From Dictyostelium purpureum (Eukaryota): 50,327 nucleotides of DNA. The notes below the pieces were generated by a model that worked only from the letters and a program-made list of their open reading frames with translations, searched no databases and was not told the DNA's origin. Where the stretch lies: the NCBI RefSeq assembly GCF_000190715.1, contig NW_003519574.1, positions 1-50,327 on the forward strand, in the 5' to 3' direction. Below, piece after piece: positions 34,175 through 43,599 of this stretch. Within the stretch, counting starts at the first letter, position 1. Each line of letters begins with the position of its first letter. The translations under genes were made by a program, and so were the position numbers.

Positions 34175-37100
34175 TTAAAATTTTAATAAATTTTTGTTTG
34201 ATGAAGTTTTTAAAACATTTTTGATGTATGCACGATCAACTCCATAGCTTAAAAGACTCGATTCACAAGCTAAAATTGGAATATCTCTGGTAATAAGATC
34301 GATGTCATAAGTTTCATCGGTAAGCATACTTAAGAAAACAAAAATGAAAAGGTATAATAAGTTTTTAAAAGTTTTTGATTGTAAACCGCCAAGTTTTCTT
34401 TCGTATTTATAAAATTCCATTTCAGAGATGCCTAATGCAGCAGCAGTTGGTGAAATTTTGAATGATGAAGAACCTAAGTCACTAACAACTTTTCTTAGTT
34501 GAGTACATACTTTAATTGTTAGGCTTGAAATTGAATGTTTTGAGGATGAAGAGAGAGATGAAGATAAAGGTGAGGGAGATACAAAGGAGGATATGGATTG
34601 TGCTGGTTTTACTTTTAGTTTCTCTTCCACAATTTCTGATCTCTCTTTTAATTTTAAATCCTTTTTTTCTTTTCTCTTTTTTTTCTTTTCATCTTTTGCT
34701 GGTAGTGTGTCTTCACTTTTAGCTTGATTACCTCTAGATAGTCTCCTTCTTGAATACTCTTTTATTTCATAACTTTCTTCTTGATATTTGTGGGATACTG
34801 GTTTGGTTGGGGCAGATACCTGGTTGATTGGAGTAGATGCTGGTTTGGTTAGAGTAGATACTGATTTTCCTTGTGGTTTATCATCATAGTCTCCAAATAA
34901 ATCAAAACCCATATCTTCATCACTTTCTTCTTGATATAAACATACTGCTGGTTTGATTGGGGCAGATACTTGGTTGATTGAGGCAGATACTGGTTTTTCT
35001 TGTGGTTTATCATCATAGTCTCCAAATAAATCAAAACCCATATCTTCATCACTTTCTTCTTGATATAAACGTACTGGTTTGGTTGGGACAGAAACTGGTT
35101 TGATTGGGGCAGATACTTGGTTGATTGGGACAGAAACTGGTTTTTCTTGTGGTTTGTCATTATAGTCCCCAAATAAACCAAAACCCATATCTCCATCACT
35201 TTCTTCTTCAGATTCATGAATTTTTGGTTTATCAGGCAATTTTTCGTTGGACATTTGAGGTGTATAGTAATCATATTCATCAAACAACCCAAATCCTATA
35301 TCATCATGGCTTTCTTCTTTCTTTTCTTTCTTTTGTTGTAATGGTGCTGCTGCTGTTAATGTTGATATTGATGTTCCATCATAACCACCATCTGAATCTG
35401 ACCAATCATCTTCATCATCTTCATCATTATCTATAAAACAAGTTGACATTCTACGTAAAGATAGTGCGGACGAAAGTTTGTTTAATAATTCACTATTTGG
35501 CTGGGTAGGTTCTAATTGATTAGCATTTAAAGCAGAAGATTGACCGGCATATTTAAAACTTACACCACTACGAATCGATGAAAGAAGATCACTACGGTCG
35601 GAAGCTAATGATTTAGAAGCAGCCAAGCCACCAAATGAAGGTAGAGGTGGAGGTGGAGGGGCTGGGGCTGATGGGGCTGGGGCTGATGGTAAGGATGTTC
35701 TTGGGGCCATCGAGCCACTACTCTTTCCGCTAATAGAATTGAATCTGTGATCAGAAGGAGCTCCTGGTGAAGGGTAATTGGAATTATTGTTATTGTTATT
35801 TTGTTGATATTTTTGTGGAGCTTTTGGTACACAGCTACCGACGCCTCTGCCTCCACCAAAAAATCCAGACAATGCTTCAATAGGTAATGTTGGTGTTGGA
35901 ATTACTGTTGGTACTGGTGCTCCGCCTACTGCTCTTGAAATGAATGTTTCCCTTTTTGACTGGGGAACGTACAAATTGGGTGGTGGTGGTGGAGGTGGTC
36001 CAGAACTTATTGGAAATATTTTTTTACTGTAAACAGTTGGTAAGGGTAGAAAAGGTGCACCAATTACTTGATTATATACAAAGGGCTCCAATGATTCTTT
36101 GACCTTTGTGCCCAAAGATACAATATGCCTTGGTTCAAGTGGGTGATTTGGAGAGAATGTGATTGATGTTAGAGGAGATGGAGAGTAACTTGGGGATGTT
36201 GGAGAGTAGCTTGGGGATGTTGGAGAGTAACTTGGGGATGTTGGAGAGTAACTTGGGGATGTTGGAGAGTAACTTGGGGATGTTGGAGAGTAGCTTGGGG
36301 ATGTTGGAGCGTAGCTTAGGGATGTTGGTTTATAAATGGGATCTTCATCGTTTATCAATCTAATATTTGTGTCGATTTCAATTTTTGGTTTAAATGATTT
36401 TTGTTTTAGGGTAATATTACTGACTTGGGCAGCTTTTAACCATTCACCGGCACTGGTTTGTGGTATAGTATTTATTTCTTTTTCAGCATTTTCGAAATCA
36501 CTAACTTTACTGGGTATCTCTTTAAGATCTGATAAAGTATAGTTTTCTTCTTCTAATTCTTCGACAATTTCATCTGAATAAACGGTTAATTCATTTAAAT
36601 AGTCTCTTAGTTTTTGGAGTTCTAAAGTTGAATCCTTGTATGAGCTTTCCTCGAGACAATCTAGCTCTGAAATTCCATTATCAAAAGCTTGTTTTGAAAT
36701 TAAAATTGCTTTTTGGGTATCACCATTGGCATGGTAGAAGTGAGAAACTGAATGATAAAACTTGATTAAAGTAGAGTTTGTTGGTGGTAATGGGTTTTCT
36801 TTTGACTTATTTATAAATTGATTATAAAGATTTTCAATTTTTTCTTGCCATTGTTTTTTAGAATATTTGTTATCGTCACATCTATAAAGACCAGTATAAA
36901 TTGAATATTGAGATTCTATTAAAGATAATAATTTCTCTTGATTGGCAAAGGAACTATTCGACATTGAATTATAGCTACTTTCTAATAACCTTAATAATCC
37001 TTTACCTTCGTAAATAATTTCATCTTTAAGTTTCTTTTTTAATCTTTGTTGTTTAGAATTTGCTGATGATAATGGTTTGGTGGGTGTTGTTGGTGCAGAA

Positions 37101-40100
37101 ATATTGATGGAGATTAATGAAGTTACTTTTTCTGAAATCAATTCACTAATAGTATTTGAAAGTAATGATAGTTCATCATGTGAATAGTCACCAAAAGTTT
37201 CATTAAGTTGATAGAATATTCTAATTGAGTCAGAGTATCTATTATTTGAATGGTACTCTTTAATTAAATTAATTAATTGATCACGTTTACTTACAAGTGA
37301 TGGGTCATTTAAGTCTTGATCAAATCCTTCCCCTTTGTTTTCCCATGCAACATATGGTAATGAATCGACAGCAGTTTGGGATATAATCGAATGGATTGAA
37401 TCGATTTTTTTAATTTGTTCGCCAGCTTCTCTTTTTTCAATGGCTACAAAACTTGTGAACTCGGTTACAATGCTATACTTTATGGAAAGATCGATAACAT
37501 CTTGTTTCTTTTTCATTTTAATTAAGTCATGCTCGTGCTTATTTGAGCTATAGGTACCATCGTTATATTCTCTAATCATTGAACGTGCAGCCAATCTATG
37601 AATCAAATTACCTTTGATAAATCCAATTTCGGGTGTATGAACAATGTTTGAAACAATACCCCCACCTGGAGCATGACATACAAGTGTTGCACGTGTACAT
37701 ATACCAGAGAATGCATAAATAACTTGTCTTTCTGATTTAAAAATTGAAGAAATAGTTGCAGGAGATTGAACAATTTTATCAGTACTATCGAATGCTACCT
37801 CGATATTTGACATTGCAGGTTGGAGTACACGTTGGATCATATCAACAATCTTTTTAGGATTTGGACGTTTATTAGGGACAATAAAATCTGCATAGCCACT
37901 ACCAATTCTTGAAATTTGTTTAATGAAATGTCTGGAACAATGTTCACCAATACCAAATGTGAATAAACGACAGAAATTTGAAGCCTTTTTTGCTAACATC
38001 AAAGATAACTCTTCATTTGAAACATTACCATCGGTAAACAATAGAATATTGTGTGGGTTGGTTGGTTTGGCTTTTTCTGATAACAAATAAATTGATTCCA
38101 ATGGAGAGTGTAGTTTTGTACCACCACTAATTGGTTTTAATTTGTTGATGTGGTTCCATGCAATTTGGAGATTTTCTTCGGTTGGTAGGACATCTTCAAC
38201 AAAAAGCCAATCATAATTGTCACCAAAATCACAAATATTGAAAAGTAATTTTGGTACACCACGTAGATTCCTAACAGTTAAACGAACTGCTCTTAAAAGA
38301 TCTTCAAATGTATCACCAGCCATAGATGCAGATAAATCGATGAGTAAAGTTAAGTGAGTGAATGATTCTTGAGTGCTATCGATATCTAATTTTGGATAGA
38401 ATGCCAACATACTGGCATGATGACCTTTATCATCTACCTCTACCCACATACGTGGTGAATAGGGTTCTTCTAGGCCAATTAATAGTTGGAAATTTTTATC
38501 TAAATAGCTCTTATCACCTGGTTGTAGTTCGATAGTAGCTTTTGTGTGAGTTCTTTTGATCTTGATATTATGGGTTGGTGAGGTTAATTTTACAATATTG
38601 TATGGCATATCAATACCAACTTGGATGGTAAGATCTGAATCTTTTTGGTCTTGGTCACTGATTGAAACAGTTTTGGTAACATTTTGTGTAACATTTGAAC
38701 CAGAGGATAAACGTTGTCTAGGTGTGATTGAACGTGGTAATACAAAACTAATATCCAAGCCATCAACTGATAACTCTGTGACATATGTGATTTTAATAAG
38801 AACATCACACTTTGGTGGTAGGTTTCCAACACTAACTGTAAACACATCAGGTTTATCTTCGTCCATTAGATAAGCACCATGGCCTGCAGCTACAGCCTCT
38901 CGATATTCACGATGAGCCTTTTCTTTTTCTTTTACTTCACCAATAATATGTTTACCATTGATAAATGCTTCAAAACCGCAAACTGCACCCATTTCGTCTA
39001 ATGGAAAAACATATTTTGCCTCAATAGTTGACGAGGAACAATTTTGATAGTGTTGATAGATAGTGACTTCTCCAATAAGATCTAATACTCTAGCTCTAAC
39101 ATGAACAGATTTTAATGGAATATCATCTTTGCCAGATGATGATTTTGAAACCAGACCAATTTCTTTTTGCTCTTCTTCTTCTTCAATATCTTTTTTATTT
39201 TCTGATTTTTCTGGAATAGTGGTAGGACATTCATCTGGTTTAATTGTTGTTTGTGGACTATTTGAAACATTTAAGACTTGGTTGGGAATATTTAATAATT
39301 CTTTTCTTAAATTTGTATCTTGAAATTCAATTAAGTATTGTAGTTTTTGTTGTTTTGAATTATAAATTACAATTTCATCATCTAGAAATTCAGATTTTAA
39401 ATTTGAGGTAGATTGGACACCCTGAACACTATTAAATCCTTTTGGTGGTTGATTTAATTGAATTTGATGAGTTGTATATTTCTTGCAATTACCCAATGCA
39501 ACTTGACAAATAAACATATATTTATGATGATTAATTTCTGAATCTTTGCAGTATTGTGCGCTTGTCATTGCTTTGGTACCAAAATAAATGCCAGAACCCA
39601 AATAACCAATGTCTCTTCTTCCAGAACCAATTGATGTTGAAACATTTGGTGGTAATAAACCCCTAGATAAAATACCTAAAATATTTGAAGGATTACTACC
39701 ATGATATAGTGTTTTAATATTCCCTAGTTGGAACTTTAAATTCTCTTCATCATTTCTGCTTATTTTATAAATTGATTTAATTGATAATTTCTGAATATTA
39801 ATTTAAAAAATTAGTATGAATTACAAAACAAAAAAAGAAAAAAAAAAAAAACATACATCATCTAATTTTAACTGATCTAATAATCTTTTATAATCTTTGC
39901 TTGAATCATCTAGCTTGGTAATATTACAATGTAATGCTCTATATCTTTTAGCTTCATTATTTCCAACTGAAAATGATAAACCACTTAATGATTCACCGAC
40001 TGATAAAATATCCTTCATAACTTGGATGGACTCTTGAATATCAGATAAATGTTCATAGTCGAATGGCTTGGATGAGCTTGGTTTAATTTGTGGCAAAGCT

Positions 40101-41521
40101 TTGTAAACTTCATTAAATAGCTCCACCGATTTATTTTCATCAATTTTGGTATTTGTGGTTCTAAGTAAAGTGGATAATTGGAATAAAGCCAACTCAGCTT
40201 TATCAACTTGAGCCAATGTGATATCACCCATTGATGTTTTAATGGTACCCTCTGGTGAAAGTGATAATGTATTACCATTACCAAATTTACTGGCTAACTC
40301 TACTATGGCATTATCGTAGAGCATTTTGATTAGTGATTCAATTGACTTTGGTAATGAGTTTGGTGGCAATGGTTTTTGTTGTGATAAATCTTCACTTTGA
40401 GTTTGATAAAGTTTTTTTAATTTATCTGAACCTACTATAACAGAGCTTAATTGTAATTTTGAATAGTCATTTTGATTTAGATACTCCAATAATATTTGAT
40501 TATAAATTGATAAAGCGCTCTCGATGCTATTTGCTGATATCCATTCTTTGGTTTCTTCACTAATTTCTTTATAAATTCCACCAGAAATTGTACCATAGTT
40601 GAGAAAAACTCTATAAAATGATGATGTATCATCATCAGATGAATCTTGGCCACTATTATTCGAGCCACCACCAACTTGAATTAAATTTAAACTTTTACCT
40701 GCCACATGTAGTTCGATACAGCAAAACCTATCAGAAAGCCTATCGTGTTTGGATAAAATATTATGTTTGACAATATGATATTTTGATTCTGGAAATAAAT
40801 CTGATTTTTCATCATATTTTATTCTATCAAATTTTTTATTTTTGTTTTCACTACCTGAATCATTGTTGTTATTATCCCCCAATAAATTTGAAAAGTCAAA
40901 TGATTTATAGTGATATTCTTTAATGTTGTATTTTGATACAAGTGAATATTCGTCATGAGATAATAAACTGCCATATGAAGCTGAATCGTCTAAATATCTT
41001 TTTGAAACAATTGGAATATTTAGTTTGATTGCCTTCTTAATCCCAAAAGATAAATCTTCAATATTAACATCATTATTATTTTCAACTTTGACTAAATCTT
41101 GAAAGTCACCATAGAATACATAATAATTAACCTAAAAATAATTGTTTTAGAATATTAATAAATTTTTTTTTATAAATAAAAGTTGTAATTGAATGAAGTT
41201 GTAAATGATAAAAAATAAGTTAAAATATTTTAGAAAAAAAGAAGATAATTAAAAACCCCTTTGTTATTATTTTAAGGTGTTTAATTCATTTGTTGAAATT
41301 ATAAAAAAGTGTTATTAAATATATAAATATCTCTAACAAAAGAGTTGAATTATAATTACCTTTTGGTTTAAAATCATTGAAACAAGACCACCATTTGATT
41401 CAATAAATGTTTGTAGTTCTTTTTTAATTTTATACCCAGATGATGGACCACAATCAAGATAAAATGTATTACCATTGAGTATATTACTCTTCTTTTGAGT
41501 GTTATTAAATCCTGATGGCAT
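34175..41521 (-). CDS. Vault poly(ADP-ribose) polymerase (PARP4/vPARP)-like protein: BRCT - PARP regulatory+catalytic - VIT - vWA - long repeat-rich tail (>=3 exons, ~2300 aa)
   Basis: Exon 1 (41521..~41367) reads [11 protein letters not shown]...[37 protein letters not shown], the first half of a BRCT domain. A GTAATT intron leads to exon 2 (~41142..39865), which holds the second half of BRCT plus a helical PARP regulatory region ending ...[40 protein letters not shown] intron leads to exon 3 (~39812..34175). Exon 3 carries the PARP signature ([18 protein letters not shown]...[17 protein letters not shown]...[10 protein letters not shown], an H-Y-E triad), then VIT ([25 protein letters not shown]...[32 protein letters not shown]) and vWA ([26 protein letters not shown]). 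The ORF-track entries 39821..40882 and 41333..41521 are therefore exons of this gene. The exact 3' end may involve a further small intron. Confidence 0.8.
34850..35335 (-). repeat. ~150-nt coding tandem repeat x3 (+1 degenerate) encoding '..[39 protein letters not shown]..' inside the PARP-like CDS
   Basis: The near-identical nucleotide units create a spurious antisense ORF (34849..35292) with internal repeats. Protein copies are [35 protein letters not shown] (x2) and [18 protein letters not shown]. Confidence 0.85.
36170..36335 (-). repeat. 8 x 21-nt exact tandem repeat (ggagagtaacttggggatgtt) encoding (PTSPSYS)n, which gives seven canonical YSPTSPS heptads inside the PARP-like CDS
   Basis: The + strand shows ggagagta(a/g)cttggggatgtt repeated. 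The - strand translation is [48 protein letters not shown]. Confidence 0.9.
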
Positions 41522-42037: not shown

Positions 42038-43599
42038 TTATTGTTTATAGTAAAGTTGAGAAAGTTGAGATTGATAATGACCATTTTGGGGAGATGAAGA
42101 TGGTGGTGGTTGTGGTGGTGGTGATTGAAATTGTGGTAATGATTTTGGAACTTGTTGATTATTGTTTGATTGTGGTGAAGATTGTTGTTGCTGTTGTTGT
42201 TGTTGTAAAAACTGTTGTTGATTTTGTCTTATAAAATATTGAACTTTTTTAACAGTGGCCTTGATCATAAACTGATCTCTTGAGAGAGAACGAACATTTT
42301 TTAAGTATTCATCTAGAGAAATTCTGTTACTGTGTAAAGCTTTATCTAAATAATATAAAAGATCCTCAATGGTTGAATCGTCAGAAACTAACTTTAATAA
42401 TTGTTTGGATAATGGATCTTTAGGACCCAACATGGCATCGATATCAATATCAGTTTCAGGTTTATCATTCTCCTTAATCCATTTCTCTAACTGGGTAATA
42501 TTTTCATTTAATTGATCAATTTGACTATTATAAAGTGCCAATTGTTCTTGAAGCTCTCCTTTTTCGAGTTGTTGTTTTTTTGATAACTCTTCCAATGATC
42601 TGTTGTGAACTTGAAAATCTTTAATTTCTTTTACGGTTGTGTCATAATATTGTGATAAAATCTCTTGTAATTTTATTGTACATTCGTCTATTAATTCTTT
42701 CTTTTTATCGATTACAGGTTGTGGAGGAATTTGTGGTAATGATTTAGTTGGTGGTGGTTGTGGTTTTTGTGGTATTGGTGGTGGAATTGCTATGGATGGA
42801 TCACCTAAACCTTTTGATGCTGCTGCTGCTAATGCTGCATTCTTTTTTTGAATTGATGAATCGTATGATGGTGGTGGTACATAATTTGAAGAAGCTCCTG
42901 GTGATGAGCCATAGGGTGGTGGGGGTATAGATCCTGTATTATTATTTCCATTACTATTAACTGGAGAACCGCTTGGAGATGATCCATATGGTGGTGGGGG
43001 TTGATTATATTGTGATGATGTAGTTGATGGCGATGAATTTGGTGATTTGGTTTCTAATGGTGGTTTAAAACTAAAAGCATCACATAATAATTTTAAACAT
43101 TGCCCTAAAGTTGATGCACTGTTCCAACTGCTGATATATGGATGATAAACCAAACCCTGTAGGTTTGCATGTTGATGACTTTCCACTATTCTCATTTCTG
43201 GTGTTGGATCTAAAAATATGGTTGGATATTCTAATGGATAGTTTAATGGTACCCATACGATAATTGGTAAATAATAATTTATATTTTTAAAACAAATTGG
43301 TATTGTACCTTTAATATTAATTAAATTTATATTTCTACCTAAATTTTAAAATTGAATAAGTATTATAAATTAAATTATTATTATGGAGGAGTATTGTAAT
43401 ACTTACTTGGTATATTTTCATAATATGGTGATAAATTTGGGAATAAATGAAAGGTTTCTTTTAAATCCTTTGCAACTCTTAAAGGATCCCTATATGCTCT
43501 AATATAATTTAAATATGTATTCAAATTATGCATTTTACCATCAACAACACTATGTGTTGGTTGTGGCATTTGCTGTTGATAACCATGATAGCCATACAT
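42038..43599 (-). CDS. tsg101: ESCRT-I subunit TSG101/Vps23 (UEV domain - Pro-rich linker - coiled coil - steadiness box), >=3 exons
   Basis: Exon 1 (43599..~43408) reads MYGYHGYQQQ...NTYLNYIRAYRDPLRVAKDLKETFHLFPNLSPYYENIP. A middle exon (~43200..43310) reads GTIPICFKNINYYLPIIVWVPLNYPLEYPTIFLDPTPE. The ORF 42038..43195 reads MRIVESHQHANLQGLVYHPYISSWN.... These are the conserved UEV-domain strands of TSG101. A PPPY-type Pro-rich linker, a coiled coil (ELIDECTIKLQEILSQYYD..) and a C-terminal S-box (ISLDEYLKNVRSLSRDQFMIKATVKKV) follow. Confidence 0.8.

Follow-up and report, generated by a model that had tools for sequence, protein, structure and literature searches.

Why should an ADP-ribosylating enzyme of an amoeba carry, well inside its chain, several copies of the peptide with which the stalk of the ribosome ends? 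The question is raised by a contig of Dictyostelium purpureum (NCBI RefSeq assembly GCF_000190715.1, contig NW_003519574.1, positions 1 to 50,327 of the forward strand; this whole stretch of 50,327 nucleotides is called the window here). The window encodes a protein with the BRCT-PARP-VIT-vWA architecture of the vault-associated PARP4 family and with four internal peptides that resemble the tail at the C-terminus of uL10 (P0), P1 and P2, the proteins of the ribosomal stalk. The function of the vault particle and of its PARP has been unclear for decades, and the presence of this motif provides a hypothesis that can be tested with peptides and that would link vaults, ADP-ribosylation and translation factors.

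Four stalk-tail-like peptides in one exon

The four peptides follow the pattern EES[DH][DEG]D[MI]GF[GD]LF[GD][DE]Y and are present on the minus strand exactly as the first-pass annotation of this DNA had written them, within one long exon and one uninterrupted open reading frame of 1808 codons (34175-39601). This frame is part of exon 3 of a three-exon gene (Table 1), whose introns, read from the sequence, have the form GT..AG. The spliced coding sequence remains in frame up to a single terminal stop and gives a product of 2350 residues, identical to the annotated D. purpureum protein DICPUDRAFT_155275 (100% identity over 100% of the length). The DNA of the window is AT-rich, of the Dictyostelium type, and the G+C content of the repeat region (0.35-0.37) is the one typical of exons here, clearly above that of the flanking intron and intergenic DNA (0.09-0.20). 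The repeat region is therefore coding.

The likeness of these peptides to the eukaryotic stalk tail, which had been claimed from the letters of the DNA, is borne out by profile and structure-database comparisons and extends to the acidic run and the serine of CK2 type. Four stretches of the protein match the Pfam family Ribosomal_60s (PF00428); the score of 43.7 bits (E 4e-11) lies above the curated cut-off of 28.1 bits. The best-scoring stretch covers profile positions 67-88 of 88, i.e. the last 22 positions that form the tail end, and the tail peptide of this family, about EESDDDMGFGLFD, is present in the D. purpureum protein. When the repeat region was compared by phmmer with 177,635 PDB sequences, 24 matches at E<10 were obtained, 23 of them to P0, P1 or P2 and the remaining one to intersectin-1. 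The alignments to the stalk proteins lie at the end of the chain or at most one residue from it in 22 of the 23 cases, the other (8q87_Bs) stopping two residues short. Among them, copy 1 together with its lysine/glutamate lead-in aligns to EKKEESEESDDDMGFGLFD of human P2. Of the 13 residues in the tail of human uL10 (PMC11624264), 11 recur in copies 3 and 4. On sequence grounds, the match to the stalk tail exceeds what chance would produce. The repeat region alone, searched against an index of 5.8 billion proteins, gave 399 candidates and none of them at E<=10.

In addition to the acidic run, the serine and the M-G-F-G-L-F core, the copies share with the stalk tails a disordered setting and multivalency, with four copies in the PARP and five tails on the stalk. 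AlphaFold2 assigned predicted local distance difference test (pLDDT) values of 30-48 and no secondary structure to residues 1966-2175, which hold the array, and the copies are predicted to lie in an intrinsically disordered linker. The differences are equally clear. The copies in the PARP are internal, placed 373, 336, 287 and 244 residues from the C-terminus, whereas the stalk tail is terminal, and they continue as G-D-Y or D-D. Neither the P1/P2 dimerisation domain nor the uL10 body is found in the PARP, the carrier being an ADP-ribosyltransferase. Judged by its sequence relationships, the D. purpureum protein is a member of the PARP4 family that has the tail as a motif, and not a member of the P1/P2 family. 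The clathrin box and the FxDxF, DPF/W, LIR and FFAT motifs were also considered and were rejected by eye, the conserved positions of the copies misfitting the consensus patterns of these motifs.

At the DNA level the array is less uniform than had been proposed. The units had been described as repeats of about 150 nt, but their spacing is 111, 147 and 129 nt; Tandem Repeats Finder (TRF) reports a period of 129 with 2.4 copies and 87% matches. The near identity attributed to the units holds for copies 3 and 4, whose 60-nt cores are identical, and for copy 2 (92% identical to them), but not for copy 1, which is 73% identical to copy 2. In the same way, the recent expansion suggested for the whole array can be retained for copies 3 and 4 only, the motif itself being old and widespread, as it is found in some animal PARP4s and in other proteins linked to ADP-ribosylation. 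Copies 1 and 2 use different synonymous codons at conserved residues (AGC/AGT for Ser, GGA/GGT and GGG/GGT for Gly, and TTG/TTA for Leu), which argues that the peptide has been selected and that the array is not just a young duplication of DNA. As far as can be judged by comparing the units, only the last duplication, that of copies 3 and 4, is recent, and it is the peptide rather than the DNA that is kept. The remains of a fifth, decayed unit at the downstream end of the array indicate that copies turn over within it. The spacers between the copies (34794-35143, minus strand) are themselves built of 21-nt (7-residue) microrepeats, VS[AV]P[IT][KN][PQ] (TRF period 21).

An array of this kind might also have arisen neutrally, by tandem duplication within a gene of low complexity that is prone to repeats, and be without any specific function. 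Copies 3 and 4 with their identical 60-nt cores, the microrepeats of the spacers and the abundance of simple repeats throughout the gene are what such an origin would leave behind. It is hard to reconcile, on the other hand, with the synonymous substitutions at conserved residues, with the conservation of the motif over five dictyostelid genera and with its recurrence in animal PARP4s, against no matches in shuffled sequences (see below). We consider this explanation most improbable and largely refuted by the conservation.

Conservation and spread of the motif

Four further dictyostelid proteins with the full architecture were recovered, from Heterostelium album (P0003), Synstelium polycarpum (P0004), Cavenderia fasciculata (P0132) and the EukProt collection (P0002). 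All four orthologues keep the motif at the same place, between the acidic stretch with its tryptophan and the C-terminal domain, in one to three clear copies each (e.g. DDGAMGFGLFDY), so that copy number over the five dictyostelid proteins ranges from 1 to 4. Loss of the motif from the orthologues, which the first-pass annotation had named as a sign against its proposal, is not what is seen. The spacers are poorly conserved among dictyostelids and the invariant columns of the alignment concentrate in the motif, which appears to be under purifying selection.

Outside the dictyostelids, 126 animal PARP4 and PARP4-like sequences were retrieved via their VIT-vWA region, independently of the motif. 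A strict match, defined as [ML]GF[GDSAC]LF after an acidic run, is present in 4 of these 126 sequences; in 300 composition-preserving local shuffles the same pattern matched 0.0 times on average and 0 times at most. With a hidden Markov model of the motif and with looser patterns, the carriers include the fishes Epinephelus, Sparus and Simochromis and the molluscs Elysia, Batillaria and Saccostrea. Some PARP4-like animal sequences (P0014, P0019 and P0022) have a precomputed actin domain (PF00022).

An exhaustive profile search added metagenomic fragments with one to four copies, two of which pass the PF00428 cut-off. These fragments bear PARP4-like parts, namely the end of the 14-3-3-like domain, the WH2-C-A module described below, or an animal-type terminus resembling the vault-anchoring MINT of PARP4. 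In P0144, an N-terminal actin fragment recognised by Pfam is combined with stalk-tail-like copies and a MINT-like end. The same search located motif arrays in a protein with RING and Deltex-C domains (P0138/P0149; DTC 199 bits) and in a DUF3626 protein of Diplonema papillatum (P0140). The DUF3626 domain is present in SopF (PMC6682159), which falls within the superfamily of ADP-ribosyltransferases (PMC11937434). The PARP4-like proteins, the RING-Deltex-C protein and the DUF3626 protein thereby make three families with the motif that are linked to ADP-ribosylation. Taken together, 33 distinct non-ribosomal instances give the consensus E-E-E-[ED]-S-D-E-D-M-G-F-G-L-F-[DG]-D, with a serine at -4 in 17 of the 33, and it equals the stalk tail with an acidic or G-D-Y continuation at the point where the chain of the tail ends.

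The carrier was described in the first-pass annotation as a vault-PARP-like protein of the BRCT-PARP-VIT-vWA type, and every one of these domains was found by Pfam, PARP_reg included. The best non-amoebal relatives of the protein are animal PARP4s. It has the same domain order as human and other vertebrate PARP4s, is 33-37% identical to them over the N-terminal half and, like them, has a small helical domain at the C-terminus that is set off by a long disordered linker; it differs from them by the addition of a 14-3-3-like domain, RNA polymerase II C-terminal domain (CTD) heptads, the WH2-C-A module and the stalk-tail array. It is of the same type as the PARP4-like proteins of Perina et al. 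2014 (PMC4245714), who list it among them. According to that paper, members with VIT, vWA and an appended 14-3-3 domain occur in D. purpureum, D. fasciculatum, P. pallidum, A. castellanii, lancelet, sea urchin and Capsaspora. Its text contains '60S' and 'WH2' nowhere and 'ribosomal' once, and no mention of a ribosomal-tail motif was found in it.

In the open-access literature no paper was found on a stalk-tail motif in PARP4 or in any other non-ribosomal cellular protein. The supposition that the combination had not been described stands to this extent, but PF00428 is among the precomputed Pfam domains of the protein and the combination is not unique to the species. Both the protein type and the stalk tail were thus already known, and what is new, as far as we could find, is the tail motif within the PARP4 family. 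As far as we could find, the stalk tail is known to date only as a target of translation factors, of GCN2 and of ribosome-inactivating toxins, and the proteins described here would be the first cellular proteins found to mimic it.

Possible readers of the array

On the ribosome, the stalk tail recruits translational GTPases. EF-2, EF-1alpha and IF5B read it as a helix, of which only G, L, L and F engage, by hydrophobic contacts; crystal structures show this short helix on EF-2 and EF-1alpha (PMC5887453). Since the contacts reported there spare the terminal carboxylate, an internal copy of the tail could work. The tails are constitutively phosphorylated at conserved serines (PMC11624264). We tentatively favor, with something short of even confidence, a reading in which the repeats mimic the stalk tail as docking motifs and recruit its readers, such as eEF2 and eEF1A, probably inside vaults. 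The four repeats would be functional short linear motifs imitating the C-terminal tail of uL10, P1 and P2, located in the linker that connects the enzymatic and VIT-vWA/14-3-3-like body with the C-terminal helical domain, and this last domain may anchor the protein on the inner wall of the vault. In this scenario the array would offer several landing sites at once, as the five stalk tails do, to proteins that read the stalk tail. The chief candidate clients would be eEF2 and eEF1A (also eRF3 and eIF5B), possibly together with GCN2-type kinases or ABCE1. These clients, or 80S ribosomes loaded with such factors, would be delivered either to the catalytic domain of the PARP or to the lumen of the vault, serving as substrates or cargo that might be ADP-ribosylated or sequestered.

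The catalytic domain required for such a role seems to be intact. It is 45% identical to that of the PARP4 of the fish Siniperca (BLASTP), with the segments LYHGS/LLHSS, GIYF/GIYF and DDEIVIY/DDEYVVY aligned, and its His, Tyr and Glu triad aligns with the triad of the fish enzyme; the D. purpureum PARP is plausibly active.

A location in vaults is suggested by homology and by two published studies. In human PARP4, the C-terminal helical MINT anchors inside the vault, long disordered linkers tether the remainder of the protein in the lumen, and depletion of PARP4 alters the vault interactome, i.e. what co-purifies with the particle (PMC12280208). The C-terminal seven-helix domain of the D. purpureum protein might conceivably be the counterpart of this anchor. 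In D. discoideum, the vault proximity proteome contains 69 of the 79 ribosomal proteins, several PARPs and eEF2 (PMC13100048). Four PARPs are enriched in the MVPA-TurboID data, namely Q54HY5 (log2 fold change 3.49), Q8I7C6 (2.83), Q55GU8 (2.32) and Q54LJ4 (1.37) (PMC13100048, supplementary file 4), of which Q54HY5 and Q55GU8 are BRCT-PARP proteins.

Two other well-known docking peptides sit in the same linker, which makes the linker look like a bait array. At its start lie the CTD-type heptads, for which TRF gives a 21-nt period with 7.1 copies and 96% matches and Pfam gives 21.8 bits with RNA_pol_Rpb1_R (cut-off 20.3); they are retained in three of the four other dictyostelid orthologues (P0002, P0003 and P0132 of Cavenderia). 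They constitute a second 'borrowed tail' within the linker of this vault PARP. Directly upstream of the stalk-tail array lies a module whose elements, as read from the sequence, are arranged as polyproline, WH2, C helix and acidic stretch with Trp, in the order of a WASP VCA region. A profile of the C-terminal module (positions 2-69 of alignment A1, searched against a library of 1.84 billion proteins) matches a WASP of Polysphondylium violaceum (P0141, E 8e-5) and the WASP-like protein P0142 (E 1.2e-4), and AlphaFold2 placed helices at the WH2 and C segments in residues 1876-2350. The module is found also in the metagenomic PARP4-like fragments P0134 and P0143, and in the latter the Pfam score for WH2 (23.9 bits) is over the cut-off. 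The likeness to the VCA of WASP/SCAR proteins extends over the polyproline, the WH2-like helix and the amphipathic C helix to an acidic stretch that has a single Trp, as seen in sequence and predicted helices; the PARP differs from these proteins in lacking WH1 and GBD/CRIB and in the degenerate state of its WH2. Actin and actin-binding domains have been noted in PARP4-like relatives (PMC4245714), which fits such a module. The whole linker, comprising stalk tails, CTD heptads and WH2-C-A, may thus serve as a bait array that chooses the clients of the vault and of its PARP, and a linker assembled from borrowed docking peptides could be a general principle by which PARP4 proteins select vault cargo.

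In a different explanation, the repeats are a functional docking peptide whose likeness to the stalk tail is convergent and whose partner lies outside translation. The candidates would be the inner surface of MVP, the actin/Arp2/3 machinery, an endocytic adaptor of the acidic-Phe type, or another domain of the same protein. The motif follows directly on a WASP-type VCA both in the dictyostelids and in fragments P0134 and P0143, actin fragments or actin-binding domains occur in some PARP4-like proteins (P0144; PMC4245714), and the conserved extension after the LF (G-D-Y or D-D-D) has no counterpart in the true tail. It is general knowledge, too, that short acidic-hydrophobic motifs converge readily. 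The match, however, extends over about 13 positions and includes the serine and the exact M-G-F-G-L-F, far beyond a generic acidic-aromatic motif, and the short motifs rejected above do not accommodate it. Docking within the molecule finds no support either, as the AlphaFold2 model of residues 1876-2350, built on an alignment of only four sequences, shows no sign of the repeats docking onto the C-terminal domain, with pLDDT values of 30-48 over the array. We therefore rate convergence as rather unlikely, while regarding it as the most serious competitor of the recruitment of stalk-tail readers.

A further possibility concerns the ribosomes found in vaults. Cryo-tomography published in 2026 showed that about one in ten D. 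discoideum vaults contains an 80S ribosome whose orientation is narrowly defined; what keeps it so is not named by the authors (PMC13100048). The array might act on ribosomes themselves, either as a rival of the stalk for GTPases or as a holder of idle 80S particles with bound eEF2, and so silence or position the ribosomes inside vaults; its four tails come near the five of the stalk. This is distinctly unlikely in our estimation. D. discoideum, in which those ribosomes were seen, apparently lacks the gene (PMC4245714). In the observed orientation it is the exit tunnel that faces the vault wall, and the stalk goes unmentioned (PMC13100048). Nor is the stalk tail known as a binder of the ribosome itself.

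The stalk tail is also where toxins attach. Ribosome-inactivating proteins (RIPs) dock on SD[DE]DMGFGLFD (PMC3280276), and such toxins bind the tail about 200-fold more tightly than EF-2 does (PMC5887453). A multivalent array might then be a decoy or sponge for RIPs of the Shiga and plant types, whose trapping in vaults would protect a bacterivorous amoeba, and vaults have long been tied to drug and toxin resistance (PMC7916137). PARP4s of fishes and molluscs keep the motif too, as do enzymes of ADP-ribosylation in unrelated protists, and an anti-toxin role common to all of these is less likely. Moreover, ricin A uses the free C-terminal carboxylate of the stalk tail, which is missing here. 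A role as toxin decoy thus appears very improbable.

Several observations weigh against the recruitment of stalk-tail readers as well. The motif is internal and continues into G-D-Y or D-D, with no free carboxylate, and may accordingly meet other partners than the true tail does. In the other dictyostelid orthologues the match is weaker, and PF00428 is precomputed for the D. purpureum protein only. No copy was found in the mammalian, bird and amphibian PARP4 sequences fetched, many of which are incomplete (<1500 residues); to judge from these sequences, the motif is dispensable for vault PARPs in general. A D. discoideum orthologue was not among the matches of the full-length search or of the exhaustive profile search, and the species is described as lacking the VIT-vWA-14-3-3 type of PARP (PMC2964712, PMC4245714). 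A search with the clean VIT-vWA-14-3-3 region listed only proteins of <1500 residues and no dictyostelid, and is uninformative on D. discoideum. Finally, the enrichment of eEF2 near D. discoideum vaults is small (log2 fold change 0.45, q 4e-5) against that of the ribosomal protein eL30 (1.37) (PMC13100048).

The recruitment reading would gain a wider meaning if the stalk-tail mimic were an ancient device, common to PARP4-like proteins, a SopF-like ADP-ribosyltransferase and a Deltex-type E3, that steers ADP-ribosylation or its read-out to the GTPases that read the stalk, and that in vault PARPs loads eEF2/eEF1A or factor-bound 80S ribosomes into vaults. We regard so broad a generalization as unlikely. 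If true, vaults and PARP4 would gain a role in translation control. To our knowledge, the enzyme behind a cellular eEF2 ADP-ribosylating activity reported decades ago was never identified, and a protein of this kind would be a candidate for it.

Layout of the gene and its surroundings

From the N- to the C-terminus, Pfam finds BRCT, a weak PARP_reg, PARP, VIT, vWA, a 14-3-3-like domain, the CTD heptads, a weak WH2 and the four ribosomal-tail matches. The coordinates of these and of the remaining features are collected in Table 1.

Table 1. Features of the PARP4-like gene of D. purpureum, with positions in the window and residues of the 2350-residue product (pTM, predicted template modelling score).
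Feature	Residues	Position	Strand	Remarks
Whole PARP4-like gene		34175-41521	minus	exon 1 41360-41521, exon 2 39857-41131, exon 3 34175-39790 (stop included)
BRCT	11-116	40946-41491	minus	split by intron 1; Pfam BRCT 22.5 bits (cut-off 21.3), BRCT_2 24.3 bits
PARP catalytic domain	480-635	39323-39790	minus	Pfam PARP 92.1 bits
VIT	705-815	38783-39115	minus	Pfam VIT 125.4 bits
von Willebrand A	959-1119	37871-38353	minus	Pfam VWA_3 52.6 bits, VWA 39.9 bits
14-3-3-like helical domain	1323-1545	36593-37261	minus	Pfam 14-3-3 47.5 bits (cut-off 33.2)
RNA polymerase II CTD-type heptads	1639-1685	36173-36313	minus	YSPTSPS, ~7; start of disordered linker
WASP-type module	1856-1946	35390-35662	minus	directly upstream of stalk-tail array
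Polyproline of WASP-type module		35627-35662	minus	
WH2-like helix		35543-35602	minus	Pfam WH2 12.1 bits, under cut-off
C-like amphipathic helix		35444-35494	minus	
Acidic stretch with Trp		35390-35431	minus	
Stalk-tail-like copy 1	1971-1985	35273-35317	minus	preceded by hinge-like run KKEKK
Stalk-tail-like copy 2	2007-2022	35162-35209	minus	
Stalk-tail-like copy 3	2053-2071	35015-35071	minus	including RLYQ lead-in
Stalk-tail-like copy 4	2096-2114	34886-34942	minus	including CLYQ lead-in; 60-nt core same as copy 3
Decayed fifth unit		34754-34792	minus	YQEES start kept, MGF.LF core lost; from direct-repeat family D3 and translation
C-terminal seven-helix domain	2236-2350	34178-34522	minus	AlphaFold2 pLDDT 88, pTM 0.84

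No tRNA genes were found in the whole window. Upstream of the PARP4-like gene, a neighbouring gene on the same strand (42038-43195 and 43381-43599, minus) encodes a protein rich in proline and glutamine in the middle, with a coiled-coil C-terminal half, which is, judged by eye, reminiscent of TSG101/Vps23.

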